Source: Patescibacteria group bacterium (lineage in GTDB: Bacteria; Patescibacteriota; Patescibacteriia; Magasanikbacterales; UBA922). From it: a stretch of DNA of 64,000 nt. Numbering within the stretch: the first letter of the stretch is position 1; the number at the start of each line of letters is the position of its first letter. The stretch lies in the NCBI GenBank assembly GCA_041658785.1, contig JBAZZL010000002.1, positions 1,714-65,713 of the forward strand, in the 5' to 3' direction. Under the pieces are notes generated by a model, which was not told the DNA's origin, searched no databases, and worked only from the letters and a program-made list of their open reading frames with translations. The position numbers were made by a program, and so were the translations under genes. Positions 34,341 to 63,980 of the stretch are shown here, piece after piece.

Positions 34341-34399
34341 TCACCTCCCCAGCCCCGCCGCGTTGTTGCGGTCTGGTTGCTCCCCTCTTCGGTGGTAAT

Positions 34400-41534: not shown

Positions 41535-41574
41535 TTTAACGTTCGCTCGGAGCCGCGACTTCAGCACTTCATTA

Positions 41575-42678: not shown

Positions 42679-42743
42679 AAATCACTTCTTACTTTCAACG
42701 TCGACGGAATTTGTGCCAGCGTTAGCTAGTGCGCCGCTTAAAA

Positions 42744-43910
42744 TTATTTTGCCGTCCAATTTCCAGCTTCGTCAAAATTTTGTGATCGTTTGAAACCGCA
42801 AGCATTCCAAATTAGGTCAAACATCGGACGCAAAATATCTTTTGGCTCTGTATTGTATGATTCGATAATTGTTTCCGGCAATTGTAAAATATCTCGATCA
42901 ATTTTGTAATGATCATGATGCCAAAATATTTCGTCAACGCCCATTTCCCAATCTTTAACCCAAATCAGTGTCAAAAAAATAACAATCGGCATATTAACGC
43001 CAAGCTGTTTTGCTAAATTCAAATATTCCGCCAACGATTTTATCAACTCCAACTCATAGGTAAAACTTGGAATAATTTTTTTCTCTCTATCTGCTCTTAA
43101 TATTAAACCTTCAACAGCCTCAATAATTCCATTTCGGTATAACTGAATGTATGAATGGGATTTATCGTTTTTTCCACCAGAATAAGACAAAACGCCTTCA
43201 AGATTAATCCGATGGCTCAAGCCGGAAGCGTATATCGGCTGTAATTTTGCAGGTACATTTATTATCGGGTTCAAATCAATGCTATGATTCGGACTAAAGG
43301 ATCCTAATGGTATGAGATGTAAAACGATTTTACCGCCCTCGTAAAATGGAAGCGGTAAATTATCAGCAACAAGTTGGGCAATTCTTTCTACTTTGAATTT
43401 ATTTATTTGCTCGGTTAGTGTTTGAGAAAGATTAAAAGCATTTTTTAATTCGTTCGTATCCAGCGCGTATTTTCCGGCGGAATTTCTTGAATAAAATTTG
43501 TCATGTCCTTTGTAAATAACGCGGTGCGGTCCCGCCCAGCTTCTATTTATTCGGAATATAAAAACATTCTTTTTGTCGGAAACATTGACGGTTCGTGTCG
43601 CAAAAATAATTCTCGGCTCAATTCCGTCTCGAATAATGTTTTCATATTTTCTGATTTCCTCATCAACATTTTCTATTTCCACGCCATCAATACTTTTCGG
43701 ACTTCCGTTTTCTTCCGAAATGCCGAAAATCAAATCCCCGCCGGAAGCATTAGCAAAAGATGAAATATCAGCCAAAAATTCTTTTCTGTCTGCGTCGGAA
43801 TTACTCGGTAATAATTTTTTATATTCAATTGTTTTGCCTTCTAAAACAGCGTTGCTTCGCAACTGCTCTAAATCATTAAATTCAATTTTATCAAGATGTT
43901 TATTTATCAT
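42744..43910 (-). CDS. AlbA_2/Schlafen-like putative DNA-binding domain protein
   Basis: E..IEYKK....L...ISSFANASGGDLIFGI matches the AlbA_2 signature. Sits between rhuM and hsdS. Confidence 0.55.
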   Translation of the reverse strand: MINKHLDKIEFNDLEQLRSNAVLEGKTIEYKKLLPSNSDADRKEFLADISSFANASGGDLIFGISEENGSPKSIDGVEIENVDEEIRKYENIIRDGIEPRIIFATRTVNVSDKKNVFIFRINRSWAGPHRVIYKGHDKFYSRNSAGKYALDTNELKNAFNLSQTLTEQINKFKVERIAQLVADNLPLPFYEGGKIVLHLIPLGSFSPNHSIDLNPIINVPAKLQPIYASGLSHRINLEGVLSYSGGKNDKSHSYIQLYRNGIIEAVEGLILRADREKKIIPSFTYELELIKSLAEYLNLAKQLGVNMPIVIFLTLIWVKDWEMGVDEIFWHHDHYKIDRDILQLPETIIESYNTEPKDILRPMFDLIWNACGFKRSQNFDEAGNWTAK

Positions 43911-43914
43911 AAAA

Positions 43915-45276
43915 TTACCCTAAAATCATTTGTTCTATTTCTTTTTGCGCTCCGGCGACAGTGCTTTCCGCTTCTTGCCGCAAGCGTTTTACTTTTTTAT
44001 AAATTGTATTTACGCCAGCGATAATTTTTTCTTGTTTTTCAACGCTGGGCAATGGCACGACTAATTTTTTCAATGCGTCATAATCCAACGCTGGGCGCGT
44101 GCCACCCGTTGTGGAGCGGAAAGATAATTCACGACCAATTTTTGTATTGAAAAAAGACGCTACATATTCGGGCAATATCTTTGTTTTCCCCACTTCGTTT
44201 TGCAAGTGAAAACGGACAGAGTGCTGATTGATATTTCCCTCAAAATTATCTGGCACAACTGCAACGCTTCCAATTCTTCCCGTGATAGTAAAAATTAAAT
44301 CGTCTTTTTTCAACTGCGAACGCTTAAGCATTGTTTCGTGAATTTCTGGTTTGATAAATTTTACATCGTCAAGTTTTATTCCCATTTCCGTAATATTCTG
44401 TACTCGCAAGAATGGCACGCCGCCCTCGTCCGAATAATAATCACCCGTAACTTTTGGCGTTGCTCCACCGGACATATCGGCTATGGCTTGGCCAAGCGCA
44501 AAGTGTTTTTTATTTTTAATCTGCTCCAATAAACTACGCAGGTATGGTTTGTAAAATAAAGCGTCAATACGACCCTCAATTTCATCGCTCCAAATCTGAA
44601 ATACCCGCTCTGCCCCCCCCCGCGGCATATCTATACCAAGCTCGCCCAAAACAAAATCGTCAATTGAGGACAAAATTTTCAAAATTTCCGCTTGTTTCTT
44701 TTTCTTTTGTTCGTATGCTTCTTGAATTTTCTTGACGACTTCGTTTTGAACCGAAAGAGGCGGAATGGGAATATCAAAATTCTTTATTGTTTCAATTGTT
44801 ATATTTCCTTGAATTGCGCCGATTTTTTCGCGCTCAATCAATTTTCGGCTCGCTTCACTGTTTAGCCACGCGGAAATATATTGTTTGTTGATTTTGGTAT
44901 TAAGACAAAACTTAATCATAAAAGAGCCGAAGGCAAATCCTTCCGCCTCTTTCGGAACGACAACGACAATACCAACCGAGCCGCTTCTTGAAATAAGTAG
45001 GTCGCCCTCGTGAACAATCGCTTTTCCTACTTCTTTGCGTTGTTCTTCGGACAAATAAACAACATCGCCCACATCAATCCCGTCATTTTTCAAATTGAGA
45101 ATACGCAAAAACGGTATTCCAAAATCAACATAATCGTTTGCCGTAGAAAGTCCGTAGCGAATATCGGTAATAAAATCGCCGAGTTTTTGCGATTTATATT
45201 TCCCGTTTTGAATCGCTTTTTGAAGCTCGCGGATTGCCGGTAACCAATATTTCGCGTCAAGCCGTCCGCCGCTCAA
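43915..45276 (-). CDS. hsdS: type I (or IIB-like) restriction-modification specificity subunit HsdS, two target-recognition domains
   Basis: LLISRSGSVG and TITGRIGSVAVV TRD cores. Central and C-terminal conserved helices. TTG start. Confidence 0.8.
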   Translation of the reverse strand: MSGGRLDAKYWLPAIRELQKAIQNGKYKSQKLGDFITDIRYGLSTANDYVDFGIPFLRILNLKNDGIDVGDVVYLSEEQRKEVGKAIVHEGDLLISRSGSVGIVVVVPKEAEGFAFGSFMIKFCLNTKINKQYISAWLNSEASRKLIEREKIGAIQGNITIETIKNFDIPIPPLSVQNEVVKKIQEAYEQKKKKQAEILKILSSIDDFVLGELGIDMPRGGAERVFQIWSDEIEGRIDALFYKPYLRSLLEQIKNKKHFALGQAIADMSGGATPKVTGDYYSDEGGVPFLRVQNITEMGIKLDDVKFIKPEIHETMLKRSQLKKDDLIFTITGRIGSVAVVPDNFEGNINQHSVRFHLQNEVGKTKILPEYVASFFNTKIGRELSFRSTTGGTRPALDYDALKKLVVPLPSVEKQEKIIAGVNTIYKKVKRLRQEAESTVAGAQKEIEQMILG

Positions 45277-46426
45277 AACATCGCCGCTCCAAGTTGTAAA
45301 AATTTCGAGCGAAGCCGAGCTCTTTTTGCTTTCTCACTTCATCAAGAGCGTGCAAAAGAAATCCGCCCGAACCGCAAGCGGGGTCAAGCACAAGATCGTC
45401 ATTTTTTATATTCATCATCTTGACGGCGAAGCTCACAATTTCGCGCGGAGTAAAGTATTGTCCGCTTTTGCCCTTGAAAAAATCCTCCATAAACTGCTCA
45501 AAAGCAACGCCTTTTGTATCAAGATCGGTTTTATTGAGCGACACGCTTTGCAAGTGTTCAACGACGGTATAAAGCTCCTCTGGCTCGATTTTCAAACTTT
45601 CCTTAAACACTTCGGGGTCTTTTTCTTTCGCTTCAAGATAAATTTCGTTTATGCGCCGATAAACGCTTTCGGCTTTTTCGTGCGTCTTGATTTGAAAATC
45701 GTAATACTCGCCGGTTTTTCGTCCGCGCTTTTCGTCGCGAATTTTTACGAAAATGATTTTGCAAAGTTCGTCAAAAGCAACGGTTGGATTTCTTTTGCCA
45801 CCAGCCCAAAGCGTATTATGGGATTTTTCAAGGGCGCGTTTTAATTCTGATTTATCAAGCACTTTCAAATCCCAGTCCGGATCGCCTTTTTTGTAACGAA
45901 ACTCCTCAATCTTTCCGTAAGAAATAGGAATATCGGTAATGGTCGCTTTTTCCGGTTCTTTGTCGTTCCATTCGGCGGTTTCCATTGCTCGGCGAGTATT
46001 GCCCGCAACGCAAATCGCAAGCGGGGCGTGAAGCACGCGAGCGTTAGCGATTGCCTGTTTGGTGGCTTGCTCAAATTCCGCGTCGGAAATGCCGTCTTTT
46101 TTACACTCAACGACGATATAAGGTCTCTTTTTTGCGTCATCCTCATAAATAACTATGTCCGCGTAGCGTTCCGGCGTCCGGTCCGGCATCTCTATTTCAA
46201 GCTCAATCCGTTTTGCCGGATAGTGATATTTTTCAATCAGGTCAAAATAATATTCGGCGCGGACTTTTTCTTCGGGATCAGTAAAATTATATTTTTTACC
46301 AGAAGCCGAATATTTAATTTTACTGCCATCAAACACAAAGTACCCTCTGTTTTCACCAATTTCTAAATAATCATTAAAACTACTCGTGCCCCCATCTTGT
46401 TGTGGTTTATAGATTGTGTCAGTCAT
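45257..46426 (-). pseudogene. truncated RM subunit: N-terminal PD-(D/E)xK nuclease-like domain fused to an N6-adenine MTase that stops just after motif I
   Basis: D..IVIY...IVVECKK nuclease-like motif. MTase motif X QYFTPREIV and motif I LDPACGSGGFL are present. The ORF ends about 30 aa later, with no NPPF/NPPY motif IV, and overlaps hsdS. Confidence 0.55.
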
Positions 46427-46481
46427 ATTTTATTTATAATCCCAATTTTCCCCGTCAGCTTGCTGCGGGGTCGTCGTTTCA

Positions 46482-46733
46482 TTAATACACCTCCTGCCGA
46501 TGCCCAATTTTAACCACGATCACCAACAGCTCGTGTTTATAAATTTTATAAATAATTCGGTACGGCCAAACCCGCACGGAATATTCTCCGGCGTGCTCGC
46601 CTGTCAGCTTTTTACCCTGAAACGGATCTTGCCCCAATAATTTCAGCGCCAAAGCGACGCGGATTCGGTATCGGGAATCAATTCTGGCGAGATCTTTTTG
46701 CGCTTTTTTTGGGAGAACCACGGCGTACGCCAT
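46482..46733 (-). CDS. relE: RelE/StbE-family type II toxin (start at MAYAVV)
   Basis: YRIIYKIY..ELLVIVVKIGHRQEVY C-terminal signature. Confidence 0.7.
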   Translation of the reverse strand: MAYAVVLPKKAQKDLARIDSRYRIRVALALKLLGQDPFQGKKLTGEHAGEYSVRVWPYRIIYKIYKHELLVIVVKIGHRQEVY

Positions 46734-47037
46734 ACTTCTTTTTACCTTTATCGGCGATGAGAAAACCCTCTTTGGCCAGGTATTCGTCCAAAGTGATGTA
46801 ATCGCCTTTTTTATAATCCCTCTCCGCTTCTTCAATATCCTTTTTCAAATCCGGAAAGTCCTTCATCACCTCCAGCGTTTCTACCCACGATTCAAATTCT
46901 TCGGCCGACATCATTACCGCTTTGGGGCGGCCTTTTTCCGTCAGGGTATAATAAACCCCCGGCTTTTGCACTTCTTTGGCCAGGTCAAAAATTCTTTTTC
47001 TCGCTTCGGATATCGGTAAAGTATTTCTGGTATTCAT
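46678..47037 (-). CDS. Phd/YefM-family antitoxin; C-terminal ~20 codons overlap the toxin start
   Basis: Phd/YefM core VYYTLTEKGRPKAVMMSAEEFESWVETLEV. T8 homopolymer at 46703-46711 lies inside the 56-nt overlap. Confidence 0.6.
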   Translation of the reverse strand: MNTRNTLPISEARKRIFDLAKEVQKPGVYYTLTEKGRPKAVMMSAEEFESWVETLEVMKDFPDLKKDIEEAERDYKKGDYITLDEYLAKEGFLIADKGKKKYGVRRGSPKKSAKRSRQN

Positions 47038-47102
47038 AAAAGTTTTTAAGTATTTATATGTACATAATAATGTACGCTACAAATTTTGTCAAGCCGATAT
47101 TA

Positions 47103-47765
47103 TCAACAATGCCCCAGCTTTTTTAAACTGGCGTAAGAACCATTTGACACAATCACATGATCCACAAGCTCAATCCCCAAAATTTTCCCCGCTTCGATCA
47201 AACGTTTGGTAATCTTAATATCTTCTTCCGACGGTTCCGTCTCTCCGGAAGGATGATTGTGCGCCACAATCACTTGCGCGGCCAAATGCCGGACTGCCGG
47301 CTCAAATACTTCGCGCGGATGAACGAGATTGGCATTAAGCGAACCGACCGAAACGATTTCACGCTTGATTTCTTGATTTCTGGAATCCAAAAAGAAAATT
47401 ACGAAATGCTCTTTTTTATGATCACGGATATCCTTGAGTTCGTCCCAAACATCCTTTGGCGATAGAATCAAAACTGATTGTTTGTTTTGCAAATGACGGC
47501 GACCAAGTTCGTAGCAGGCGACGATTTCGCACGCTTTCGCGCTACCAAGACCGAATGTATTTTTTAATTCTTTAACCGAGGCCTTGGCCAAACCAACGCC
47601 ACTGAATTTCCTTAAAATCTTACTGGATAATTCCACGACATTTATGCCTTCGCTTCCGGTGCGTAAAAGAATCGCCAAAAGTTCGGAATCCGAAAGCCGC
47701 TCGGGACCGTATTTTTCCAGCTTCTCCCGCGGCCGATCAATTTTGGGTAAGTCCTTTATTTTCAT
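47103..47765 (-). CDS. radC: RadC-family JAB/MPN domain protein
   Basis: HNHPSG..PS..D JAMM motif. N-terminal HhH region. Confidence 0.85.
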   Translation of the reverse strand: MKIKDLPKIDRPREKLEKYGPERLSDSELLAILLRTGSEGINVVELSSKILRKFSGVGLAKASVKELKNTFGLGSAKACEIVACYELGRRHLQNKQSVLILSPKDVWDELKDIRDHKKEHFVIFFLDSRNQEIKREIVSVGSLNANLVHPREVFEPAVRHLAAQVIVAHNHPSGETEPSEEDIKITKRLIEAGKILGIELVDHVIVSNGSYASLKKLGHC

Positions 47766-47800
47766 ACTTATTTATTTGGCGATTTCCTTTAACATCTATT

Positions 47801-48496
47801 TTATTTTTCACTTTCTGCTCTGGCTTTGAACAAAAAAATGGTTTCTGATTTTAATTTCGCACGCGCCCAATCTTTCTGTGGTTCGGATAATGACTCCCCT
47901 AAACCGACCAATAAATTGCGATCCGCCATTTTTTCAATCTGATCAACGCATTTTTGCAACGCTTCTTTGAAAGAAACACCGGATCGCCTTTTAACTATTT
48001 CCTTGTTAATCGGCCAATTATTTTTCAAAAAGTACCAGACATCATAAATATCGCGGCTAGTCTTTCCGATACGCTCTAACATCGCCATTAACTTATGGGC
48101 AAACATATCCTCGGGAATCATAACCAACATAGAAATACCCAATAGGGTCTTTACTTCAAACTTTGATCCGAAATCCCGTCTGTTAACTTCTATTTTGATG
48201 TTTTGTGATTTAGTGTCATACGAGATGACAATTAGCAAATTGAATTTTTTGATTTTTGAATCTATGACCTTGCCATAGCTCTCCGCAATTTTTTGGATTT
48301 TCTCAAAGACCATTTGCTCTTTGCTTTCATCCAATAAATCAAAATCCAAATCAAACGAATCTCTATTCAATCCATAGAACAAGTGAGCGGCCGTTCCGCC
48401 TTTGAATCCTAAATATGGAGAGATGGAAGTATTGGAATAAATATCCTTTAGGATTTGCAATAATATGTTTTTATGCTTGGAGTAATCAACGGTCAT
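47801..48496 (-). CDS. AbiEii/AbiGii-family nucleotidyltransferase toxin
   Basis: GGTAAHLFYGLNR.S.DLD nucleotidyltransferase motif of the AbiEii (DUF1814-like) family. Confidence 0.65.
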   Translation of the reverse strand: MTVDYSKHKNILLQILKDIYSNTSISPYLGFKGGTAAHLFYGLNRDSFDLDFDLLDESKEQMVFEKIQKIAESYGKVIDSKIKKFNLLIVISYDTKSQNIKIEVNRRDFGSKFEVKTLLGISMLVMIPEDMFAHKLMAMLERIGKTSRDIYDVWYFLKNNWPINKEIVKRRSGVSFKEALQKCVDQIEKMADRNLLVGLGESLSEPQKDWARAKLKSETIFLFKARAESEK

Positions 48497-49092
48497 ACGT
48501 TTGAATTTTTATAGTTTTTAAAATAATCATTAACCCTCTTTTCCATTTTTTTGTTATTGTAGATCGGCAAAATTTGAAACACCTTGTCCCAATTCAAGCC
48601 GTTTAAATTATCAAAATGATAGTCTTTGCTTATATATATCCTGTCCAAAAACGCTCTCTCTTTTGTAGCAACGGCTATGCCATTTTGATGTTCGATGCCA
48701 ATAGTGTTACTCAATACGTAATCCTTCATGCGGATTAAGGAAATTTTTTGTTCGGGAATTTCAATCTCTCGGGTCACATACGATGCGACAAAAATAGAAT
48801 CGTAGTACTGAAAATTAATTCCGGCACGGGTCAATACCGTTTCAAAGCTGATGTATGAGGGAGTATAAATGCGCGTCACCAATTCAAAACGATCATAATT
48901 TTTATCTTTGGCATATATGCCGCGCCGGACCCTGATTAATTTTCCAGCGTTAACATATTTAATTAATCGGCTGGCTACGGTCTGCTCTTTTTCTTCTCCC
49001 CACAACAAAGCCACGTCTTTTGTCGAAAAGACGGCCCGAGGAGATCGCAATAAGACCTCTAAATATTCACCTTTGGTGGGTTTTTTATCCAT
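48493..49092 (-). CDS. AbiEi-family antitoxin/transcriptional regulator (type IV TA)
   Basis: N-terminal wHTH. 4-bp overlap with the AbiEii gene. Size and order typical of AbiEi-AbiEii. Confidence 0.55.
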   Translation of the reverse strand: MDKKPTKGEYLEVLLRSPRAVFSTKDVALLWGEEKEQTVASRLIKYVNAGKLIRVRRGIYAKDKNYDRFELVTRIYTPSYISFETVLTRAGINFQYYDSIFVASYVTREIEIPEQKISLIRMKDYVLSNTIGIEHQNGIAVATKERAFLDRIYISKDYHFDNLNGLNWDKVFQILPIYNNKKMEKRVNDYFKNYKNSNV

Positions 49093-49316
49093 ATATAGAC
49101 TGGAATAAGCCTTAAAGGTTTGTTCCAGTTAAATTATATGCTAAAATGCAAATAAGCGCAAGATCCTTTGGATAATAAGCAAATTGCTACTAAGACTCGA
49201 ACCGCGTTTTGCTTTCGCAAAAGGTGGCGATTGAACCGAAAAAATCTTGGCAAATACTATACAATCTGCCTGCCGACCCCGCCGTGGCGGGGGAGGAAAA
49301 CTCGCAACATCCAATT

Positions 49317-49609: not shown

Positions 49610-50404
49610 TCATGAATTAAGCCTCTTGTCAAATTTCTGCCAGTCAAAAATTTTTCTCTCACTGTGAAAAACCGTGTACTCTTGCACTAAATTATGCAAT
49701 GAATCCGCCTCATCCCCCTTAAATTTCAAATTATTAATTAACTGCCAATCCCCCTCCAAAAGCAATCGTAAATTCTTCGCCTGCTCCGCGTTACAATTCA
49801 AAATCCGTTCCCCCAATTTTTCTTTTTTCTCCCGGCAAACTTTACAAATAACCCCTCCCCCAGCCGGATACAAATCCGCTATTTCTTCAATCCCGCACAC
49901 CACACAGATCTTTAGCTCCGGCGCAAAACCTAAATAATTTAGTAATTTAATGATAAAACCATCCACCAGTACAGGCGCATTGCAATGCGCCTCAACTAAC
50001 GCATTGCAATGCGTCTCAACTAACGCATTGCAATGCGTCTCAACTGAAGCAATAAATTCCAACCAACTTTTCAACAAATCAAAAATCCTCTCCTCCCTTT
50101 CTCCTGTATGCGTTAATTTATCAACCACAGAAACCAGATAACTGGCAGCTAAACTTTTCTCAGCATTTTTTCTAACGCTTGAAAAAAACTCTACCGGCTG
50201 TACTTTGGTCAGATGATCTATTTCCTTGCCTTTTTCCACCACGATATCAACCAAAGAAAACGGCTCAAGATGAGCCGAATTTTTGCTGGTTATTTTTTTC
50301 ACTCCGCGCGCGAGCAGTTCAAGCTTGCCTTGATCTTTCGTGAAAAGGGAAATGATCTGGTCTGACTCGCGGAAATCTCGCCGGGATAATATAATTGAAA
50401 GCAT
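49610..50404 (-). CDS. recO: DNA repair protein RecO with 24-nt x3 in-frame tandem repeat
   Basis: N-terminal OB fold. CxxC...CxxC zinc motif. Repeat VETHCNAL x3 at 49970-50045. Confidence 0.8.
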   Translation of the reverse strand: MLSIILSRRDFRESDQIISLFTKDQGKLELLARGVKKITSKNSAHLEPFSLVDIVVEKGKEIDHLTKVQPVEFFSSVRKNAEKSLAASYLVSVVDKLTHTGEREERIFDLLKSWLEFIASVETHCNALVETHCNALVEAHCNAPVLVDGFIIKLLNYLGFAPELKICVVCGIEEIADLYPAGGGVICKVCREKKEKLGERILNCNAEQAKNLRLLLEGDWQLINNLKFKGDEADSLHNLVQEYTVFHSERKIFDWQKFDKRLNS

Positions 50405-50459: not shown

Positions 50460-50879
50460 TTATTGCTTACTCTGCTTACTCTGCTCCAAATATGATTGCA
50501 GAATCACCATCGCCGCTTTCTCATCTCTACTCACCGTTCCTCCCATCGCATCCGCCTGCCTCGAAGTAAACCTCTCGTCAACGAATTCAATTGGTAAGTC
50601 AATTCGTTTTTTTAATTCTTTCACGAACGCTTGAACAATTTTTGTGTTCTCATTCTCTTTTCCATCCAAACCAATCGGCAACCCCACGACAATTTTATCT
50701 ATCTTTTCTTTGGCAATCAAATCTGAAATCTGTCCCGCCAAAACGGGATCCCGCTCGCTGCGGGAAATTCTGAAATCTGAAATCAAAAATTGGCCAAATG
50801 GCAAAACAACCCCAAGGCCAGTCTCCACCCAAGCCAATCCAATATTTTTTCTGCCGTAATCAATGCCGAGTATATTCAT
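50460..50879 (-). CDS. ruvX: YqgF/RuvX-family Holliday-junction resolvase-like nuclease, with in-frame GGGATCCCG element
   Basis: MNILGIDYGRKNIGLA N-terminus. Insert at 50741-50768 encodes RSERDPV. Confidence 0.85.
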   Translation of the reverse strand: MNILGIDYGRKNIGLAWVETGLGVVLPFGQFLISDFRISRSERDPVLAGQISDLIAKEKIDKIVVGLPIGLDGKENENTKIVQAFVKELKKRIDLPIEFVDERFTSRQADAMGGTVSRDEKAAMVILQSYLEQSKQSKQ

Positions 50880-52800: not shown

Positions 52801-52941
52801 ATGTTTTAAGTTAAAAATTAGCTTAGATTAGCCAAATTAGTATAACACTTGATTGATGCTTCGTCAAATATCAAAAACCCGCCAACAGGCGGATGATAAT
52901 TCGTATCTTGTGTTTCGTGTTACGTGCCTCGTGCCTCGTGA

Positions 52942-54240
52942 TTAAACTCGATCGTACTCATGCATTGTCAGCTGCGCTTCAATCTGCTTGAAAATATCAA
53001 TTGCCACCGCAACAACGATAAGCAAACTGGTGCCGCCAATAGCCAAACTATTTGTTCCGGTAAAGCCCTGCAAGATAAGCGGCAGTATCGCAATCATACC
53101 CAGGAATAAAGCGCCAATTAAGACAATTCTATTCATGGTCTTGCCAATATACTCCTCTGTCTGCTTCCCCGGCCGAATACCGGGAATAAAACCTCCTTGC
53201 CTCTGCAAATTTTCCGCAACTTTATTGGGATGAAAAATAACTGCAGTATAAAAATAGGTAAAACAAAAAACAAGAAGAAAATAAAATATTCCATAAAACC
53301 ACTGATTCTGAAAAATATAGATAATCTGCCTGGCAATGTTCGCCAACCTTCCGCCGCTATTTACAAAAAACTGCGCGACCGTTGGAGGGAATAAAATAAC
53401 TGAAATAGCAAAAATGATTGGGATAACGCCGGCAGTGTTTACTCTAAGCGGCAGATGCGACTGGGCGCCTCCATAACCGCCGTGAGCGCCATGCGCCATT
53501 CTGGCATAACTAACAGGTATATTACGTTGTCCTTCACTAATAATTACCACTCCGACGACCGTTACAATCGCAATTACCAAAAACATAATGTATGTATACA
53601 AATCGGATGGATTGTAGTTTACAAGTAAATTCTGCAAGGCCCCGGGAAGGGCGGCTATAATACCGGCAAAAATCAACAACGAGATGCCATTCCCAATATT
53701 TCTTTCTGTAATAAGTTCGCCGATCCACATTAAAAAAATGGTTCCGGCTGTGACGGTAATCATAATCGCCGCCAACCGATATGCGCTAAAATCCGGGATA
53801 ATATTGGTTTGTGTCTGTCCCAAAAGCTTGATCAGACCAAAGGCCTGCAGCAGCGCAAGCGGCACCGCGGCAATCCGCGTATAATTGTTAATTCTGCGCC
53901 GTCCTGCCTCGCCTTCCTTCTGCATCTCCTCCAGTTGCGGAACTACCATCGCCAACAATTGGAAGATAATGGAAGAGGTAATATACGGAGCAACACCAAG
54001 CATAGCAATAGAAAAATTCTCAATAGTACCCCCAGAAAAAATATTCAATAGCCCCAAAATTTGATTGCCTGCCAAAAAGCTTCGCAAAGCCGCCACATCT
54101 ACGCCCGGAATTGGGATATGAGCAACCGCTCTAAAAATAACAAGCATCCCCAAAACAAAAAGGATGCTATTGCGAAGACTTTTAATTTTCCAAATACGTT
54201 GAATTTTTTCCCACATACAGTTATAAAATACAAGATACAT
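52942..54240 (-). CDS. secY: preprotein translocase subunit SecY
   Basis: 10-TM pattern. Position after rplO. Confidence 0.9.
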   Translation of the reverse strand: MYLVFYNCMWEKIQRIWKIKSLRNSILFVLGMLVIFRAVAHIPIPGVDVAALRSFLAGNQILGLLNIFSGGTIENFSIAMLGVAPYITSSIIFQLLAMVVPQLEEMQKEGEAGRRRINNYTRIAAVPLALLQAFGLIKLLGQTQTNIIPDFSAYRLAAIMITVTAGTIFLMWIGELITERNIGNGISLLIFAGIIAALPGALQNLLVNYNPSDLYTYIMFLVIAIVTVVGVVIISEGQRNIPVSYARMAHGAHGGYGGAQSHLPLRVNTAGVIPIIFAISVILFPPTVAQFFVNSGGRLANIARQIIYIFQNQWFYGIFYFLLVFCFTYFYTAVIFHPNKVAENLQRQGGFIPGIRPGKQTEEYIGKTMNRIVLIGALFLGMIAILPLILQGFTGTNSLAIGGTSLLIVVAVAIDIFKQIEAQLTMHEYDRV

Positions 54241-54354
54241 GGATCAACACACAATATACATTGAGAAAAATACAAAATCAAATTTACTAATTGTTTTGAA
54301 TTACGAAATGTCATTGTCTATCATTCCATGTATATTGTAGTATATTGTATTTTG

Positions 54355-54805: not shown

Positions 54806-55486
54806 TTATGTTGGGTTAAAGTCTATTTCTTTTTTTTGTTCTCTGTTCTCTTGATTTTCCAGCTTTATATCCTTTATATCTTTTGTAATATCTGTAATAT
54901 CCTCATTACCCGCATTCAATTTATCTTTCTTTTTTTCGTCTTTCCTTTGTTCAAATCTCTTATCAACAATTTTTGCTTTTTGCAAAAACGACTGCAAGGC
55001 CTTAAAAGTCGCCTTTACATTTACGACTTTATTGTTAGATCTGCCCATCATCTTTGCCGATGCGTTTGGCACCCCTGCCAACTCAAGCACTGTCCGAATT
55101 GAGCTGCCGGCAATAATGCCAGAACCTTGCGGCGCCGGCTTTATCATTACTCGGCCAGCTTTGAACTTGGCTTCTACACGGTGCGGAATTGTCTTTTTTT
55201 CAATTGGAACATAAATCATCGCCTTCTTTGCTTGATTCACGGCTTTTTCAACAGCAATCTGTACGTCCTTTCCTTTGTCCAAACCATAACCTACTCTGCC
55301 CTTGCGGTCGCCAATAACCACACAGGCGCGAAAACTTAACTGCTTGCCTCCTTTGGTAACACGGGTAACACGCGCCAAATCAACAATGTGCTGGTCAAAT
55401 TCAGGTTTTTCTTTTTTAAATCTTTTTCCATCTCTGGACTTTCCTTTTCCTTGTGCCATACTTTTAATTATTAATTTTAACAACAA
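54806..55486 (-). CDS. rpsE: 30S ribosomal protein S5 with Lys/Glu-rich C-terminal extension
   Basis: dsRBD and S5 C-terminal motifs. About 50 extra C-terminal residues. Confidence 0.85.
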   Translation of the reverse strand: MLLKLIIKSMAQGKGKSRDGKRFKKEKPEFDQHIVDLARVTRVTKGGKQLSFRACVVIGDRKGRVGYGLDKGKDVQIAVEKAVNQAKKAMIYVPIEKKTIPHRVEAKFKAGRVMIKPAPQGSGIIAGSSIRTVLELAGVPNASAKMMGRSNNKVVNVKATFKALQSFLQKAKIVDKRFEQRKDEKKKDKLNAGNEDITDITKDIKDIKLENQENREQKKEIDFNPT

Positions 55487-56486: not shown

Positions 56487-56600
56487 CTAATATTATTATC
56501 CTAATCTGCAAATTTCCGAATACCGCGAATATCTTAATAATTTTTTATTTCATTTGTTATTATTAGGATATTCGCAGATTCGGATGGAATTCGTTGTATT
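56487..56600. repeat. imperfect long palindrome (CGAATATCCGAAT family) in rplF-rpsH spacer
   Basis: Shares ATTCGGATATTCG motifs with the 12974-13025 palindrome. Confidence 0.4.
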
Positions 56601-56609
56601 CGGATTATA

Positions 56610-56999
56610 TTAATATACTGAACAAATAACCTCTCCTCCCACCCTTTCTTTCCTTGCCTGTTTATTGGTCATCAAACCTCTGGGGGTGGACACGATTGCA
56701 ATGCCATAATCATTTAATACGCGCGGCATGTCGCAGGCTTTTTTATAAATCCTATGTCCAGGCGTGCTTTCACGCTTTATTGACTGGATCGCGGGAATTT
56801 TTCCATTATATTTCAATTTCAACACCAATTTGGAATGCGTCCCTTCGACTTTTTTAACCTCATCAACATATCCTTCATGATTCAAAATATCAGCAACCGC
56901 CTTCTTTATTTTAGAAAAAGGAAGCTCCACAGCGCCCTTGCGCGCCAGCTGTGCGTTTCTTATTCGAGTTAACATGTCGGCAATTGGATCAGTCATCAT
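56610..56999 (-). CDS. rpsH: 30S ribosomal protein S8
   Basis: MMTDPIADMLTRIRNA N-terminus. Confidence 0.9.
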   Translation of the reverse strand: MMTDPIADMLTRIRNAQLARKGAVELPFSKIKKAVADILNHEGYVDEVKKVEGTHSKLVLKLKYNGKIPAIQSIKRESTPGHRIYKKACDMPRVLNDYGIAIVSTPRGLMTNKQARKERVGGEVICSVY

Positions 57000-57015
57000 A
57001 ATATTTTACACTTAA

Positions 57016-57212
57016 TCACTTTAACACTTTAGCACTTTAACACTTTAGCACTTGAGCACTTTAACACTTTAGCACTTGAGCACTTTAACACTTTAGCACT
57101 TGAGCACTTTAACACTTTAGCACTTTAGCACTTGAGCACTTTAACGCTGAGGCACTTTTCCAATTTACTTGGGAATAAATCGTGCTAAAGTGCTTCAGTG
57201 CTAAAGTGCTTA
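57016..57212. repeat. 24-nt tandem array (CACTTTAA-CACTTTAG-CACTTGAG, ~5.5 units) with inverted tail, between rpsZ and rpsH
   Basis: Direct units 57016-57150. Inverted copies 57182-57212 can pair back onto the array. Confidence 0.7.
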
Positions 57213-57219
57213 GGCGATT

Positions 57220-57405
57220 TTACCAGCTGGACTTTCTGACACCTGGCAATTTGCCTTGGTTTGCCAGCTCGCGAAAACAAATACGACACATATTAAACTT
57301 TCTCATATAGCCGCGCTTTCTGCCGCATTTCCAACAACGTCTGACTATTCTTGTGCTAAACTTTGGTTTTCTATTTGATTTTGCAATTTGTGACTTTTTC
57401 GCCAT
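57220..57405 (-). CDS. rpsZ: 30S ribosomal protein S14 type Z (zinc-binding)
   Basis: 61 aa. CxxC...CxxC. Confidence 0.85.
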
Positions 57406-57425
57406 ACAAATTATGTAAATTTACA

Positions 57426-57971
57426 TCATCTTTCACTAAACGGAAATCCCAGCGCCTTTAGCAGCGCCAGTCCTTCTTCTTTATTCTTGGCAGTAGTGGT
57501 GATAACGATTTCTAAACCATGAATCTTATCGACCGCTTCGCTTGAAATTTCAGGAAACGCGATATTCTCTTTCAAACCAAGGGTATAATTACCTTTTTTA
57601 TCAAAACTCTTTGGACTGATTCCACGAAAATCCCGGACTCGAGGCAATGTAACGCTAATTAACTTATCAACAAAATAATACATCATTTTCCCACGAAGTG
57701 TAACTGATGCGCCGACATCCATGCCTTGCCGGATCTTAAAGTTCGAAATAGCCTTTTTTGCCTTATTATGGATCGGCTTCTGTCCGGTGATTGATGCTAA
57801 TGTTTTCTCTACATTTTCAATAAAAGCGCTCTCTTTCGCGTGCCGGCCATACCCGACATTCACCGTTACCTTCTGAATTCTTGGGACTTGCATAATATTT
57901 TTATACCCAAGCTGATCCTTAAGCGCGGGAGCTATTTGTTCTTTGTATTGTTTGTACAATCTCGATTGCAT
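57426..57971 (-). CDS. rplE: 50S ribosomal protein L5
   Basis: 181 aa. L5 signature. Confidence 0.9.
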   Translation of the reverse strand: MQSRLYKQYKEQIAPALKDQLGYKNIMQVPRIQKVTVNVGYGRHAKESAFIENVEKTLASITGQKPIHNKAKKAISNFKIRQGMDVGASVTLRGKMMYYFVDKLISVTLPRVRDFRGISPKSFDKKGNYTLGLKENIAFPEISSEAVDKIHGLEIVITTTAKNKEEGLALLKALGFPFSER

Positions 57972-57974
57972 ATT

Positions 57975-58045
57975 AATCTAGTTCATGGTTCTCAGCCAAT
58001 AGCTATTAGTTATTTTGCAAAATTTTATTGGCTACAAATTATTGG
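57975..58045. repeat. imperfect palindrome of TAGTTCAnGGTTCnCAGCCAATAG family
   Basis: Related to 61752-61828. Confidence 0.4.
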
Positions 58046-58066
58046 CTTTGAACTGCCGGCTTAATC

Positions 58067-58387
58067 CTAATCAATAAATTCTCCGCTCCGTTTTGCGACT
58101 CTCTTTTTATCTTCACCTTCAATGACAAAACCGACACGGGTTGGCTTCCCTGATTTTGGATCAATCAGCATTACATTGCTGATATCAATCGGAGCAGACA
58201 ACTCTATTGTCTGCCCTTTCTGGCCGCGCTGGCGCGGACGCAGATGCTTTTTTAATATATTAATACCCTCTACAACCGCATATCTTCTATTTGTATTTTT
58301 ATTTGTTAATACCTGAATGACCTTGCCGGTTTTCCCGCGTTCTTTTCCTGATAATACTTTTATTTTGTCTCCAGTTTTAATTTTCAT
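58067..58387 (-). CDS. rplX: 50S ribosomal protein L24
   Basis: KOW motif. 106 aa. Confidence 0.85.
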   Translation of the reverse strand: MKIKTGDKIKVLSGKERGKTGKVIQVLTNKNTNRRYAVVEGINILKKHLRPRQRGQKGQTIELSAPIDISNVMLIDPKSGKPTRVGFVIEGEDKKRVAKRSGEFID

Positions 58388-58488
58388 AATTTGTTGATTC
58401 GAATCAGCTGATATACTCCCTTGCTCTATTTAATTTCAATTTTGAATTTTATCCATACATTATTATTCTATTAAGATTCAGCTAAAAA

Positions 58489-58538
58489 ACCAATTTCCAA
58501 TTTCCAATTTCTAATTTCTAATTTCTAATTTCCAATTA
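58489..58538. repeat. heptamer tandem array (TTCCAAT/TTCTAAT)n in rplN-rplX spacer
   Basis: ccaatttccaatttccaatttctaatttctaatttctaatttccaatt. Confidence 0.65.
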
Positions 58539-58919
58539 CACTACTTCCGACGCTAACGAAATAATCTTCTGGAATCCTTTGATGCGTAATTCTCGGGCAA
58601 CCGGACCAAAAATGCGCGTCCCTTTTGGTTCTTTGTCTTTTTTATCAATAATTACCGCCGCATTTTCATCAAATCTAATATAGGTGCCGTCTTTTCTGCG
58701 CCGCTCTTTCTTTTGTCTGACAATTACCGCGTGAACTATATCGCTCTTTTTGACTGCGCCGCGCGGGTCTGCCTCTTTTACTGTACACGTGATAATGTCG
58801 CCAAGCTGAGCATATCGTTTCTTGTATCCGCCAAGCACACGAATACACATTAGCTTTTTTGCGCCGCTATTATCTGCTACTTTTAACATTGTCCGGTGTT
58901 GAATCATATATACATCCAA
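58536..58919 (-). CDS. rplN: 50S ribosomal protein L14
   Basis: Likely start MIQHRT (58907). Confidence 0.9.
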
Positions 58920-58966
58920 ATTACTCCGCCTAAGGCTGACCTGCCTTGAGTGCAGAATGGCGCAAT

Positions 58967-59254
58967 TTACGACTTTTTAACAACTTCCAATAATCTCCAT
59001 CGTTTGGTCTTGCTCAACGGCCGACACTCTTGAAATATCACCCGATCTCCAACCTTTGTCTCGTTTTTCTCATCATGTATTGCATATTTCTTGGAACTAA
59101 TGTATTGCTTGTGGTACTTTTTATGCATCTTGGCGGTGATAACCAAAACATGCGCAGTCTTATTTTCATTTTTATTAACCACTTCCCCCTCAAATCGACG
59201 GCGTACTTTTGTCTGTCCGGTTTTCTGTTGCGATTGCTTCGTGTCTTTATCCAT
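58967..59254 (-). CDS. rpsQ: 30S ribosomal protein S17
   Basis: OB-fold S17 core. Confidence 0.85.
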
Positions 59255-59305
59255 ATTATTTTAAATTTGGCATCTATTGAGAAACTGCGCCATTGTTTTG
59301 GTTAA

Positions 59306-59530
59306 TTACTTTGAAAATTTTCTTTGATTCAAGATCGTCAAAATGCTCGCGATCGTCTTCCTGACTTTAGAAATTAATTTAACATTTTTTAGCTGTCCCT
59401 CGCTTGCTTTAAACCTCAGCTCGCGAAGCTCATTTTGCTTCTCTAAAAACAACTCATTCAACTCTTTATCATTTTTTCGTCTATAATCAATAGTTTCCAT
59501 ATTAACAAATTTATCTCCAACCCCTTCCAA
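59306..59530 (-). CDS. rpmC: 50S ribosomal protein L29
   Basis: Helical L29. Likely start METIDY (59500). Confidence 0.8.
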   Translation of the reverse strand: MEGVGDKFVNMETIDYRRKNDKELNELFLEKQNELRELRFKASEGQLKNVKLISKVRKTIASILTILNQRKFSK

Positions 59531-59589
59531 AATACCCCGCAGGAAGACACTTGGATTTAATCAATGGTATGAACCCTGGAGCAAACTCT

Positions 59590-59672
59590 GGACTCTTGTT
59601 CCGTCCCGACACAAAATCGGGACGGGAAAACTTGTCCGGCGCAGCCCGTCCGCCAGCTGGCGGACGGGCGGA
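59590..59672. repeat. palindromic insert in rplP-rpmC spacer containing CGTCCGCCAGCTGGCGGACG
   Basis: Hairpins GTCCCGAC-acaaaat-CGGGAC and GCCCGTCCGCCAGCTGGCGGACGGGC. Same 20-bp palindrome as the 10728-10751 terminator. Confidence 0.5.
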
Positions 59673-59688
59673 GACGGATTTATCAACT

Positions 59689-60102
59689 TCATTTCTTGGC
59701 GACAAATCTTGATTTAACTGGCATTTTGTGGCCGGCTAATACCAGCGCCTCTTGCGCTTTTTCTTTTGACACGCCTTCCATCTCAAACATCACCGTTCCC
59801 GGCTTGACTGTGCACACATAATGATCCGGCGTGCCTTTTCCCCCTCCCATCGGCACTTCCGATCCTTTCTTCGTCACTGGACGATCTGGAAAAATCCTTA
59901 TCCATATTTTCCCGCCACGTCTGACATATCTTGTCATTACTCGCCTTGCCGCTTCAATCTGTCTGGAAGTAACCCAAGAATACCCCAGCGAAGACAAACC
60001 ATAACTTCCAAAAGCTATAAAATTTGTCCTCGTAGCCAGACCCTTTCCTCCGCGGCGCGGCCGGTGCCATTTTCTGTGTTTTGCTTTCTTAGGTATTAAC
60101 AT
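59689..60102 (-). CDS. rplP: 50S ribosomal protein L16
   Basis: 137 aa. L16 signature. Confidence 0.9.
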   Translation of the reverse strand: MLIPKKAKHRKWHRPRRGGKGLATRTNFIAFGSYGLSSLGYSWVTSRQIEAARRVMTRYVRRGGKIWIRIFPDRPVTKKGSEVPMGGGKGTPDHYVCTVKPGTVMFEMEGVSKEKAQEALVLAGHKMPVKSRFVAKK

Positions 60103-60105
60103 ATC

Positions 60106-60831
60106 TCAATTACTAGCTACAAGTTGTTGCTTTCCTTTTTTTTCTTTTTTATCTCTTTTCTCATCGCTCTCTTCATTTTTACCAAATCGATCCTTCCTGG
60201 TAAATACTTCTCCCTTATAAATCCAGACTTTTATGCCAATCTTCCCATAAGTGGTATCAGCCTCTACAAGCGCATAATCAATATCGCTTCGAAGAGTGAT
60301 TAGAGGAACTTTGCCAAAAGAAAGGGTCTCGGTACGAGCAATTTCTACTCCGTTTAATCTTCCTGACATCCTTACTTTTACTCCTTGAGCGCCGGCTTTC
60401 ATCACTCGATCAATGCCTTGCTTCATTACGCGCCGGAATGGGATACGTCTCTTTATATCAGACTCCATCGTCTGCGCCGCTACCGACGCAGACAAAGCCG
60501 GCGAGCGCAGCTCCTGCACATTTATCTTAACTTTCAAACCCATCTTCAAAAATTTTCGTTCAATATGTTTTCTTACTTCATCCAGGCCCTTGCCGCCTCG
60601 GCCAATAATAAATCCCGGCTTTGCGGCGATAATAGTGACTGTCATATTCTTCGGACCGCGTTCAACACTAATTGCGTCAATATGCGCTTCCTTGAACTTA
60701 TCTCCCAAATATCCGCGTATTTTGATGTCTTGCTCCGCGTACTGCGCGTAATTCTTCTTTCCGAACCATTTCGAATCCCAAGAATACACTATCAGCATTC
60801 TGTGAATTGTTGGATGTACTTTGTGGCCCAT
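60106..60831 (-). CDS. rpsC: 30S ribosomal protein S3
   Basis: KH domain. C-terminal Lys-rich tail. Confidence 0.9.
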   Translation of the reverse strand: MGHKVHPTIHRMLIVYSWDSKWFGKKNYAQYAEQDIKIRGYLGDKFKEAHIDAISVERGPKNMTVTIIAAKPGFIIGRGGKGLDEVRKHIERKFLKMGLKVKINVQELRSPALSASVAAQTMESDIKRRIPFRRVMKQGIDRVMKAGAQGVKVRMSGRLNGVEIARTETLSFGKVPLITLRSDIDYALVEADTTYGKIGIKVWIYKGEVFTRKDRFGKNEESDEKRDKKEKKGKQQLVASN

Positions 60832-60839
60832 AATAATAT

Positions 60840-61244
60840 TTAATCTTTATCTTCTACCTTATCTTCTACCTTGCCCGCCGCTTTTCTTTTTGTTTTTTCA
60901 TCGGCATCTCCCTCTAAAATAATCGTGATATGACTTGTTCTTTTTTTTATCTTTGCCGCTCGGCCAAAGGCGCGGGGCATCCATCGATATAAAATCGGTC
61001 CGCCGTCAACAAAAGCTTGTTTAACAATCAAAGAATTTTCCTTCACATTGTCATTATGCGTCGCATTTGCAATTGCGGACTTCAGAAGTTTAATTACCGG
61101 CAAAGAGGCATGTTTTGTGGAAAGTTCTAATTGCGCAATCGCTTCCTTCACCTTCATGCCACGAACCAAACCAATCAATAGACGCACCTTTCTTGGACTC
61201 ATTCTCAAATATCTAAGTTTTGCTCTTGTTTCAACTTTTGTCAT
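60840..61244 (-). CDS. rplV: 50S ribosomal protein L22 (start reassigned to MTKVETRAK)
   Basis: The ORF-track start at 61280 would translate the heptamer array (MEIRNWKLEIGN). The ATG at 61244 gives a canonical L22. Confidence 0.85.
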   Translation of the reverse strand: MTKVETRAKLRYLRMSPRKVRLLIGLVRGMKVKEAIAQLELSTKHASLPVIKLLKSAIANATHNDNVKENSLIVKQAFVDGGPILYRWMPRAFGRAAKIKKRTSHITIILEGDADEKTKRKAAGKVEDKVEDKD

Positions 61245-61245
61245 A

Positions 61246-61366
61246 TTTCCAATTTCCAATTTCCAGTTTCTAATTTCCAATTTCCAATTTCCAGTTTCTA
61301 ATTTCCAGTTTCTAATTTCCAGTTTCTAATTTCCAGTTTCTAATTTCCAATTTCAATTTAATTAAC
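61246..61366. repeat. heptamer tandem array (~17 units of TTCCAAT/TTCCAGT/TTCTAAT) in rpsS-rplV spacer
   Basis: Longest array of the family in the window. Confidence 0.7.
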
Positions 61367-61407
61367 TCAATATCAATTCATTATAATAAATATTTTATGA
61401 CTGCGTA

Positions 61408-61749
61408 TTATTTTACTTTACTAGCAGTATTGGCAGTATTAACAGCGCTGGCGGTGCTCGCAGCGCCGGCAGCGGTCTGTTCCTTCGCTATCCTGCCTCC
61501 ATGAACTGTAAATTTTCTGGTTGGTGAAAACTCGCCAAGTTTGTGCCCAACCATATTTTCATCGGCAAAAACATCAATAAAAGAACGGCCATTGTGTACG
61601 GCAAACGTCATCCCCACCATCTCTGGTGTAATTGTGCTGGCTCGAGACCAAGTCTTGATCGGTTTTCTATCTTTTGTCGCTTTTGCCGCAGCAATCTTTT
61701 TTATCAAATTTAAATCAACGTATGGACCTTTTTTAAGACTTCTTGACAT
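61408..61749 (-). CDS. rpsS: 30S ribosomal protein S19 with Ala/Thr-rich C-terminal extension
   Basis: Core S19. About 20 extra C-terminal residues. Confidence 0.85.
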
Positions 61750-61751
61750 AT

Positions 61752-61828
61752 TTACTAGTTCATAGTTCAGAGCCAGTAGCCAATAGTTTTGAACCCCATT
61801 ATTGGCTATGAACTATTGGCTCTGAACT
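61752..61828. repeat. imperfect ~75-bp palindrome (TAGTTCATAGTTCAGAGCCAATAG family) in rplB-rpsS spacer
   Basis: Both halves are reverse complements with few mismatches. Confidence 0.4.
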
Positions 61829-61834
61829 AATAAT

Positions 61835-63839: not shown

Positions 63840-63906
63840 ATCTATGACAAAACCAGTAATTAGCTGTTAAAATTATCATTCCGATCTTACACAGTTTCAA
63901 ATTTCT

Positions 63907-63980
63907 CCCGCAGTAAGCGGGATCCCGCCCCGCAATGGAGTCGTGTCCCCATTCGCTACGGGGCTCGCTGCAGGGACAAT
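63907..63980. repeat. GCGGGATCCCGC-centred repeat element (copy B) upstream of rplD
   Basis: cccgcagtaagcgggatcccgccccgcaatggagtcgtgtccccattcgctacggggctcgctgcag. Core shared with 38721-38830. Confidence 0.55.

Follow-up and report, generated by a model that had tools for sequence, protein, structure and literature searches.

Repeat inserts in the spacers of the S10-spc operon

The 64,000-nt stretch of DNA analysed here (positions 1,714 to 65,713 of contig JBAZZL010000002.1, assembly GCA_041658785.1, from a Patescibacteria group bacterium; hereafter the window, numbered from its first base) has a G+C content of 43% and carries on its minus strand an S10-spc ribosomal protein operon, the spacers of which contain tandem arrays and hairpins made of short repeated units. 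The best GTDB matches of its L5 protein are metagenome-assembled genomes (MAGs) of Patescibacteria, several of them named Candidatus Magasanikbacteria, with a maximum of 75% identity. The operon extends from L4 (63839) to secY (52942) in the usual gene order (L4, L23, L2, S19, L22, S3, L16, L29, S17, L14, L24, L5, S14, S8, L6, L18, S5, L15, secY); L30 is absent from it. A promoter-like site was detected upstream of L4 (63900-63872), the count of such sites in the scan being not above that given by shuffled sequences. A canonical intrinsic terminator, i.e. a stem followed by a U-tract, marks the end of the operon 3' of secY (52877-52894, minus strand), in contrast to the spacer hairpins described below.

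Of the 10.9-kb operon block, 1457 nt are spacer; eight of the 18 spacers are at least 85 nt long, the longest being 220 nt, and together account for 1175 nt. Comparison with 80 related loci showed that these spacers are expanded, since the corresponding lengths are mostly 0-30 nt in relatives. Genomes of the Candidate Phyla Radiation (CPR) are small and usually called streamlined; here, in such a genome, repeat-filled spacers take up 13% of the most conserved and most highly expressed operon, and loops encoded by repeats are found in essential proteins of repair and replication (see below). Arrays were identified with Tandem Repeats Finder (TRF) and hairpin arms by an inverted-repeat search, while RNA folding gave the minimum free energy (MFE) and its z-score against shuffled sequence. 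Tandem-repeat bases between 54000 and 64000 number 565, against a mean of 24 and a maximum of 126 in 50 dinucleotide shuffles. An earlier note on this DNA had listed seven repeat features in the operon spacers: the insertions are real and six of the seven were clearly recovered. Folding of each insert, which the note had called for, showed the hairpin inserts to be very stable (z from -4.8 to -6.5).

All the spacer elements described next are on the minus strand. The longest hairpin (57014-57219; MFE -70.5, z -6.1) occupies the 220-nt S14-S8 spacer. It consists of an array (57005-57158) of 17.5 copies of an 8-nt unit, with a 24-nt super-period (5.5 copies), which pairs with an inverted tail (57182-57219); TRF, the inverted-repeat search and folding thus all agree with the array and inverted tail previously placed at 57016-57212. 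The hairpin starts at the first base past the rpsZ stop codon and ends 14 nt short of the rpsH ATG. Three long palindromes had also been claimed, and two of them are borne out. The first, between S8 and L6 (56498-56605; MFE -37.8, z -6.5), starts 4 nt past the rpsH stop codon and has arms of NCGAAUN-type units (56498-56522 pairs with 56561-56585, among other pairs). The second, between L2 and S19 (61763-61829; MFE -29.1, z -4.8), has arms made of 14-nt tandem units of the GCCAATAG/GAACTA family and ends 13 nt short of the rpsS ATG. The third, given as 57975-58045, is weak: the L24-L5 spacer holds a degenerate palindrome of the same GCCAATAG/GAACTA family (57975-58066), a decayed copy of the family at 61752-61833, with arms of only 14 nt that are 86% complementary and an RNA fold of z -0.7 to -1.4.

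The 188-nt L16-L29 spacer, which is of 4-17 nt in most relatives, contains two adjacent GC-rich hairpins with a common GGACGGG motif (59596-59630 and 59635-59678), in agreement with the insert reported at 59590-59672 between rplP and rpmC; the spacer folds with an MFE of -82.5 (z -5) and has no U-tract. The two heptamer arrays listed at 58489-58538 and 61246-61366 were delimited by TRF as 58490-58537 and 61245-61359. The former (GGAAAUU/AGAAAUU in mRNA sense, 6.9 copies) begins at the rplN stop codon and folds less well than its shuffles (z +1.4). The latter, made of 16.6 heptamers or 8.3 14-mers (GGAAAUU AGAAACU), ends at base -1 of the rplV ATG and is unusually unstructured (z +2.8). Two further elements were absent from the earlier list: a hairpin (54229-54339, arms 54223-54255 and 54313-54345) in the 138-nt L15-secY spacer (MFE -31.1, z -2.8 to -3.9), and a GC-rich multi-hairpin element ahead of L4, in the L3/L4 spacer (63906-63976), flanked by heptamers of the RTTTCYA family and with related copies at 8922-8954, 38706-38822 and 50735-50767.

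A common anatomy emerges: units of 7-10 nt are repeated head to tail, and the array often faces its own inverted copy, so that a long hairpin with tandem-unit arms is formed.

Relatives and near-identical strains

That relatives might carry the same spacers as conserved leaders had been considered in the earlier note; this was not found, the positions of the inserts being not conserved. A subset of CPR loci (L001, L003, L005, L017-19, L024 and L055) has expanded spacers at other junctions and a similarly high tandem-repeat density. Their inserts have tandem-unit arms too, and in each genome several spacers draw on the same few dominant families, which are that genome's own. The AGCACTTG/GTGCTAAA unit, found between S14 and S8 in the window, is between L23 and L2 in L001, where the GCCAATAG/GAACTA family occupies L24-L5, S14-S8 and a third site; this family was also met in one metagenome contig. 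Units of 12-14 nt are found unchanged at non-homologous sites, and also in species with L5 proteins only 75% identical. Unit families therefore come back at different places both within a genome and in other species, and this pattern argues against conserved leaders as well as against a purely local origin.

The placement of the hairpins follows a simple rule. In nine CPR genomes, 33 of the 52 expanded S10-spc spacers fold with z at or below -3. The hairpins begin 0-5 nt past the stop codon (median 3 nt) and end about 12 nt ahead of the next start (median 12 nt before the ATG); the unpaired remainder, about 15 nt, is the size of a normal compact spacer.

In a strain 99.5% identical to that of the window, the sole differences within the operon are point changes and two in-register indels, both inside arrays: a loss of 56 nt (4 x 14) in 61245-61359 and a gain of 40 nt (5 x 8) in the S14-S8 array. 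The spacer upstream of adk illustrates a wider range of states: it is a one-armed array of 10-mers in the window, has one more 9-nt unit in a second strain, and is a full hairpin with a 48-nt inverted arm in a third. Arrays thus gain and lose whole units between near-identical strains, and the adk alleles indicate that a one-armed array and a hairpin are two forms that one kind of element can take. Such variation among 99.5% identical strains should make the repeats useful strain markers.

A different kind of variation was seen 3' of secY, where unrelated heptamer arrays (CACGAGG versus TTTAGAT) precede the same terminator in the window (52845-52940) and in L081 (15070-15180), a locus of the same species. 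Beyond this array the identity between the two falls from 99.5% to 88%, which suggests a recombination boundary.

Short-unit repeats in the rest of the window

The framing of the S10-spc block as a special place is wrong, for such elements also occupy spacers elsewhere in the window and break into essential genes. Over the 64 kb, TRF gave 42 merged arrays, 17 of which are within open reading frames (ORFs); tandem-repeat bases amount to 13.8% of intergenic and 1.25% of coding DNA, and their density (27 bp/kb) compares with a median of 6.7 in the 80 related loci. Arrays of 7-10 nt units are found throughout, often as inverted pairs (4349/4401, 15486/15542, 30721/30836, 38071/38121, 50406/50448), and belong to several families (GGAAATT/AGAAACT, AGCACTTT, TACGAAA, AATTCACCT and others). 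The heptamer family of the 58490-58537 array, for instance, is also present at 4349, 4401, 9478, 30755, 38071 and 38118. The same heptamer units lie inside coding regions and between convergent genes.

In-frame repeat inserts were recognized in real genes, namely radA, recG, recO, a Mur ligase gene, topA, aspS and ruvX. The short-unit repeats there lie in frame within surface loops of essential proteins; in RadA, two repeat-encoded segments are clean insertions relative to the Streptococcus pneumoniae protein (PDB 5LKM). The host genes are at 3936-5399 (radA), 8323-10560 (recG), 49610-50404 (recO), 17598-18938 (Mur ligase), 19624-22014 (topA) and 30872-32644 (aspS). Although 7 and 8 are not multiples of three, in-frame arrays with 7- or 8-nt units add loops of 7-28 residues to conserved genes.

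Two larger kinds of element were encountered besides the simple arrays. A GC-rich double-hairpin core (TCCCGCAGYRAGCGGGA TCCCG...CGGGA) occurs at 8905-8968 (recG), 50720-50785 (ruvX), 38706-38822 and 63906-63976; it is centred in heptamer runs that flank it as direct repeats, and two of the copies are in frame inside essential genes. The flanking heptamers could be target duplications or pre-existing arrays. An element of about 215 nt is present in two copies about 95% identical (5467-5681 and 34386-34607), each forming one long imperfect hairpin with arms of 75-92 nt. It matches no Rfam family, its sole look-alikes being sub-threshold ones among miRNA precursors, and appears to be a separate family similar to miniature inverted-repeat transposable elements (MITEs).

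Gene-bearing cassettes with the same architecture

Between the der stop codon (14430) and the pth start (14949), on the plus strand, the window contains an element (14434-14945) with a gene in its loop. Two perfect 34-nt inverted arrays of TACGAAA units (14434-14467 and 14912-14945, 100% complementary) enclose an ORF (14496-14906), the product of which belongs to the GxxExxY family (TIGR04256, E 1.3e-24). In four other contexts, homologues of this gene are all flanked by inverted arrays of CGAA(A/T) units. A second type of cassette was found in L081, just outside the window, where AATTCACCT/AGGTGAATT arrays enclose a four-helix-bundle gene of the 23S rRNA intervening sequence (IVS) protein family. 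The four-helix-bundle genes of L081, L218, L220 and L222 all have flanking AATTCACCT/AGGTGAATT arrays, while that of L093 is flanked by a different unit; in contigs of Magasanik-, Moran- and Uhrbacteria these arrays end 1-10 nt before the next ATG. The cassette architecture was confirmed in nine further genomic contexts across CPR. The architecture of the operon inserts is thus also that of the terminal inverted repeats of small-gene cassettes, in unrelated neighbourhoods across CPR phyla.

Gene-less forms of both types are present in the window. An ORF-less hairpin with AATTCACCT/AGGTGAATT arms of 29 nt, 97% complementary (30712-30864, minus strand), starts 7 nt past the aspS stop codon, ends 8 nt before the next ATG and has 12-mers in common with the L081 cassette; a solo, ORF-less TACGAAA arm is at 36732-36766 (z 18.6 for its similarity to the GxxExxY-cassette repeats). 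Two loci have the left array in duplicate, as direct repeats on either side of the ORF; recombination between these repeats would leave only the hairpin.

Cassette genes are uncommon in the ribosomal protein operons of relatives, since tblastn of both cassette proteins against all 90 loci searched gave self matches only. A search of all loci for inverted repeats 150-2500 nt apart returned, besides the two cassettes, nothing but arrays of one family placed in separate spacers of L018 and of L055. For TATTGGCTNNGAACTA, nearly all matches in the first 120 metagenome loci were single chance matches; one true relative was found (L183), with no gene-bearing partner. Both small gene families are very abundant (1772 database matches for the four-helix-bundle query, 631 for the GxxExxY query) and have no known function; PF13366 is likewise a family of no known function (PMC3424549).

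Two observations concern the cassette ends and contents. In L218, L220, L222 and the window (30712-30749), the right-hand repeat places a Shine-Dalgarno (SD)-like AGGTGA 5-10 nt before the downstream ATG, and the left-hand repeat of the four-helix-bundle cassette carries TCACCT, identical to the 16S rRNA 3' end motif. This placement may be a coincidence or a built-in means of keeping the downstream gene translated. In L095, a related Magasanikbacteria contig, a small GIY-YIG gene (5399-6096) is flanked by GC-rich repeats of the GTCATTGCGAGC... type and is a third kind of repeat-bounded small-gene cassette; a similar motif is found in the window at 16696-16730.

Origin of the inserts

From the distribution described above, we consider it likely that the operon inserts are the local representatives of a class of short-unit repeat elements found throughout the genome, and not devices of the operon. 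They look like selfish elements and are most likely ORF-less, fast-evolving members of the cassette-type class, tolerated as passengers. Relaxed selection against repeat spread, one of the explanations put forward in the earlier note, comes close to the evidence, the repeats being genome-wide, not conserved in position and variable in copy number at 99.5% identity. The operon hairpins would be MITE-like members of the class with other unit sequences, which may have spread by a copy mechanism and then been remodelled by replication slippage and fold-back (template-switch) duplication. They may persist because a self-folding insert that leaves about 12 nt free before the ATG would do little harm in an SD-poor organism.

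A number of points weigh against this account. The similarity between the operon hairpin arms and the GxxExxY-cassette repeats is not significant (z 0.5-1.6), and the operon hairpins contain no AATTCACCT unit; the link to the cassettes is therefore one of architecture and placement, not of sequence, and it is from these that cassette membership of the operon hairpins would follow. No transposase, or REP-associated tyrosine transposase (RAYT), was detected by Pfam in the 30 larger ORFs or in the gene calls of L081, L083 and L088, about a dozen small ORFs being left unscanned, nor could target-site duplications be delimited. The heptamer arrays, which lack an inverted partner, may differ from the hairpins in origin or role. 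The presence of a GCCAATAG/GAACTA hairpin in the L24-L5 spacer of both the window and L001 could reflect inheritance, or a function at that place. Co-transcription of the inserts with the operon is a step that we infer, as is, by analogy with rRNA intervening sequences, the cutting of their long stems by RNase III, which would probably give a segmented operon mRNA. Lastly, the sample consists of 64 kb of this genome and about 20 kb per relative.

A more specific proposal, doubtful in its full form, can be built on the cassettes. CPR would host an undescribed class of mobile cassettes, the terminal inverted repeats of which, arrays of 7-9 nt units, would be iterated binding sites for the small protein encoded inside, either a GxxExxY protein with a PD-(D/E)XK nuclease fold or a four-helix-bundle 'IVS' protein. 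The cassettes would insert just past the stop codons of co-directional genes and be released from the transcript by RNase III, as for rRNA IVSs; their decay would generate the one-armed arrays and the hairpins without an ORF, which amount to about 14% of intergenic DNA and some of which are inside essential genes, and the ribosomal protein operon would be a highly expressed transcript that was colonised. The interest of this link is that it provides a concrete hypothesis for the GxxExxY and four-helix-bundle genes, which would be passengers or agents of a mobile cassette bounded by hairpins and akin to the rRNA IVS, and suggests a possible source of heptamer-type repeats in SD-poor bacteria.

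We regard as unlikely that the repeats are pure satellites, each born in place by replication slippage of local sequence where selection is relaxed or mismatch repair weak, neither copied from site to site nor related to the cassettes. Slippage would account for the strain differences, which are whole-unit indels (56 = 4 x 14, 40 = 5 x 8, and the 9-nt duplication), and heptamers are the commonest unit of long simple sequence repeats (SSRs) in bacteria, for which polymerase slippage was proposed (Mrazek 2007, as cited in PMC4679880). However, it does not explain why identical 12-14-nt units are found at non-homologous sites and in species with 75% L5 identity, why every genome has dominant families of its own that fill more than one spacer, or how cassette genes move with conserved unit arrays into unrelated neighbourhoods; moreover, slippage alone gives no inverted arms.

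Possible roles in translation and regulation

Initiation in this genome appears to rely little on SD sequences: an SD-like motif precedes 11 of 69 genes (16%) and a T is present at position -1 in 81% of the 69, which suggests SD-independent initiation with a strong preference for U at -1. In this context the elements could be thought to serve translation, the unstructured purine-rich heptamers next to a start codon acting as landing pads for SD-independent initiation or as regulator sites, and the stop-to-start hairpins bringing the two codons together for re-initiation. The S19-L22 array, which reaches base -1 of the ATG and folds less well than its shuffles (z +2.8), the 12 nt or so left free ahead of the ATG by the hairpins, and the AGGTGA placed 5-10 nt ahead of the next ATG by the right-hand inverted repeat of the four-helix-bundle cassette are all in keeping with such a role, and the same proposal was made for the TAACTGA repeats (PMC4679880). 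We nevertheless find it quite improbable: spacers of 2-10 nt suffice at the same junctions in close relatives, one strain does without 8 heptamers of the array, the same units are found inside coding regions and between convergent genes, and neutral inserts subject to purifying selection would end up with this geometry as well.

The earlier note had also suggested that the inserts could be intra-operon attenuators or RNA-processing sites. That they are operon-specific regulators, whether transcription attenuators or autoregulatory leaders bound by ribosomal proteins, is very improbable. The L24-L5 junction, i.e. the start of L5, is the site of S8 control in E. coli; one family occupies it in both the window and L001, and the stability of the hairpins is high (z -4.8 to -6.5). 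Yet the same families are present outside the operon and in other spacers, spacer positions are not conserved in relatives and copy number varies between strains. A further point against attenuation is the absence of a U-tract on any spacer hairpin, the minus-strand consensus scan flagging only 52894-52877 among intergenic regions, so that the sole canonical terminator on the coding strand is the one after secY. At gathering threshold, Rfam gave only tRNAs over the whole window, with no rRNA, and a permissive search of 54-64 kb gave only sub-threshold look-alikes of miRNA precursors. Finally, the sense and the antisense strand are each the more stable in 16 hairpins (Wilcoxon p = 0.67). This evenness suggests palindromes at the level of the DNA rather than RNA structures under selection, and with no sense-strand bias we dropped the view that the stems are kept for their RNA fold. 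Long near-perfect stems are generic substrates of RNase III, as in rRNA intervening sequences, and the inserts are possibly RNA-processing sites in this weak sense, as a by-product of the elements and not as a conserved function of the operon.

That the repeats are artefacts of short-read metagenomic assembly is hardly credible, even though short-read contigs break within arrays (L082 ends at 57096 and 58519, L086 and L087 begin at 50016) and array lengths vary among assemblies, because at least five independent assemblies (ENA ERZ27249422 and ERZ27247322, Logan SRR8449812 and SRR8449827, JGI 3300028032) reproduce the sequences and are identical through hairpins and arrays, the inserts in coding regions preserve the reading frame and the same architecture is seen in unrelated MAGs. 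Assembly errors in these regions, a concern of the earlier note, were thus not found; for the two longest arrays the assemblies disagree on the copy numbers, which are hence uncertain. In CPR metagenome assemblies, variable repeats of this kind are a systematic source of contig breaks and of mis-called gene starts.

Comparison with known repeat systems

One of the closest parallels is provided by heptamer arrays found upstream of SD-less starts, including in ribosomal protein operons, and subject to 7-nt indels between strains, in Beggiatoaceae, Cyanobacteria and Bacteroidetes (PMC4679880); long SSRs with units of 5-11 nt were surveyed by Mrazek et al. 2007, as cited there. The arrays described here resemble them in having head-to-tail units longer than chance allows (565 versus 24 bases) and in being strongly intergenic, in varying between strains by whole-unit steps (56, 40 and 9 nt here), in often abutting SD-less starts and in occasional copies within ORFs. 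They differ in that their units are other than TAACTGA, with many families per genome (7, 8, 9, 10 and 14 nt), in that most are paired with an inverted copy, whereas the BOGUAY genome has 169 direct sets and one indirect set, and in that they double as terminal repeats of gene cassettes. The cyanobacterial heptamers known as STRR were reportedly described by Mazel and co-workers in 1990.

The rRNA genes of CPR contain IVS-like inserts, short ORF-less inserts and 23S_rRNA_IVP ORFs (PMC11270868). The features in common with the 23S rRNA IVS (PF05635/TIGR02436) are an inverted-repeat stem with an optional ORF of the same family in the loop, as seen for the AATTCACCT family in L081, L218, L220 and L222, insertion into a highly expressed transcript without loss of function, and a sporadic, apparently horizontal distribution. 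The operon hairpins are ORF-less and have other units, and none of the elements is in a 23S rRNA helix, their sites being protein genes and the spacers between them. We know of no IVS described as having stems of tandem 7-9 nt units.

Repetitive extragenic palindromes (REPs) and the hairpins formed by REP pairs (REPINs) are also short dispersed intergenic repeats, with inverted pairs forming hairpins of about 70-110 nt just 3' of genes, co-transcription and genome-specific families, features that are said to have been set out by Bertels and Rainey in 2011. A REP arm, however, is an imperfect palindrome of 20-40 nt, whereas the arms here are direct tandem units of 7-14 nt; no RAYT was seen in the window, and REPs are not usually in frame within coding regions.

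The likeness to MITEs and to the pneumococcal BOX elements lies in non-coding derivatives that have terminal inverted repeats in common with a gene-bearing element, form hairpins and contain variable internal modules. Repeats in common with a gene-bearing element were seen for the TACGAAA and AATTCACCT families; for the operon hairpins the similarity does not exceed z 1.6 and the AATTCACCT unit is lacking. Unlike MITEs, the elements come with no detected transposase or definable target-site duplication, and their gene-bearing partners encode a PD-(D/E)XK-fold or a four-helix-bundle protein.

Rickettsia palindromic elements, reportedly described by Ogata and co-workers in 2000, are alike in behaviour only: they are in-frame repeats tolerated in essential genes, to which they add loops or disordered tails. 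Unlike the short-unit arrays of the window, each is a single-copy insertion of about 100-150 bp. Borg tandem repeats are both genic and intergenic and evolve rapidly (PMC9879509), but they are perfect and longer direct arrays without inverted partners, with no sequence relation to those of the window. TIGR-Tas and CRISPR-like arrays were considered and dropped, there being neither a 36-nt period with spacers nor an associated gene. In the literature that could be searched, we found no description of tandem-unit-arm hairpins in CPR, of GxxExxY cassettes, or of tandem-unit inverted repeats linked to both small gene families.

Other features of the operon and its surroundings

Two in-frame tandem repeats within ribosomal protein genes, both on the minus strand and absent from the earlier list, were found by TRF and translation: a 12-nt repeat that encodes the tail of L22 (KVEDKVEDKD, 60847-60872), and 9-nt and 15-nt repeats in the C-terminal extension of S5 (DITDITKDIKDIK..., 54837-54952). 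Low-complexity extensions were noted in S19 (tail, 61408-61470, about 21 extra residues), L23 (62723-63208, N-terminal, about 60 residues) and S5 (tail, 54806-54950, about 45 residues), some at least of which are encoded by tandem repeats.

Outside the operon, a defence and addiction cluster (40460-49100) adjoins the recO-ruvX-map-adk block. According to the gene calls of an identical contig (L083), it comprises genes for type I restriction-modification methylase and specificity subunits, AbiEii, RadC, Phd/ParE, SLFN/AlbA_2 and RhuM.

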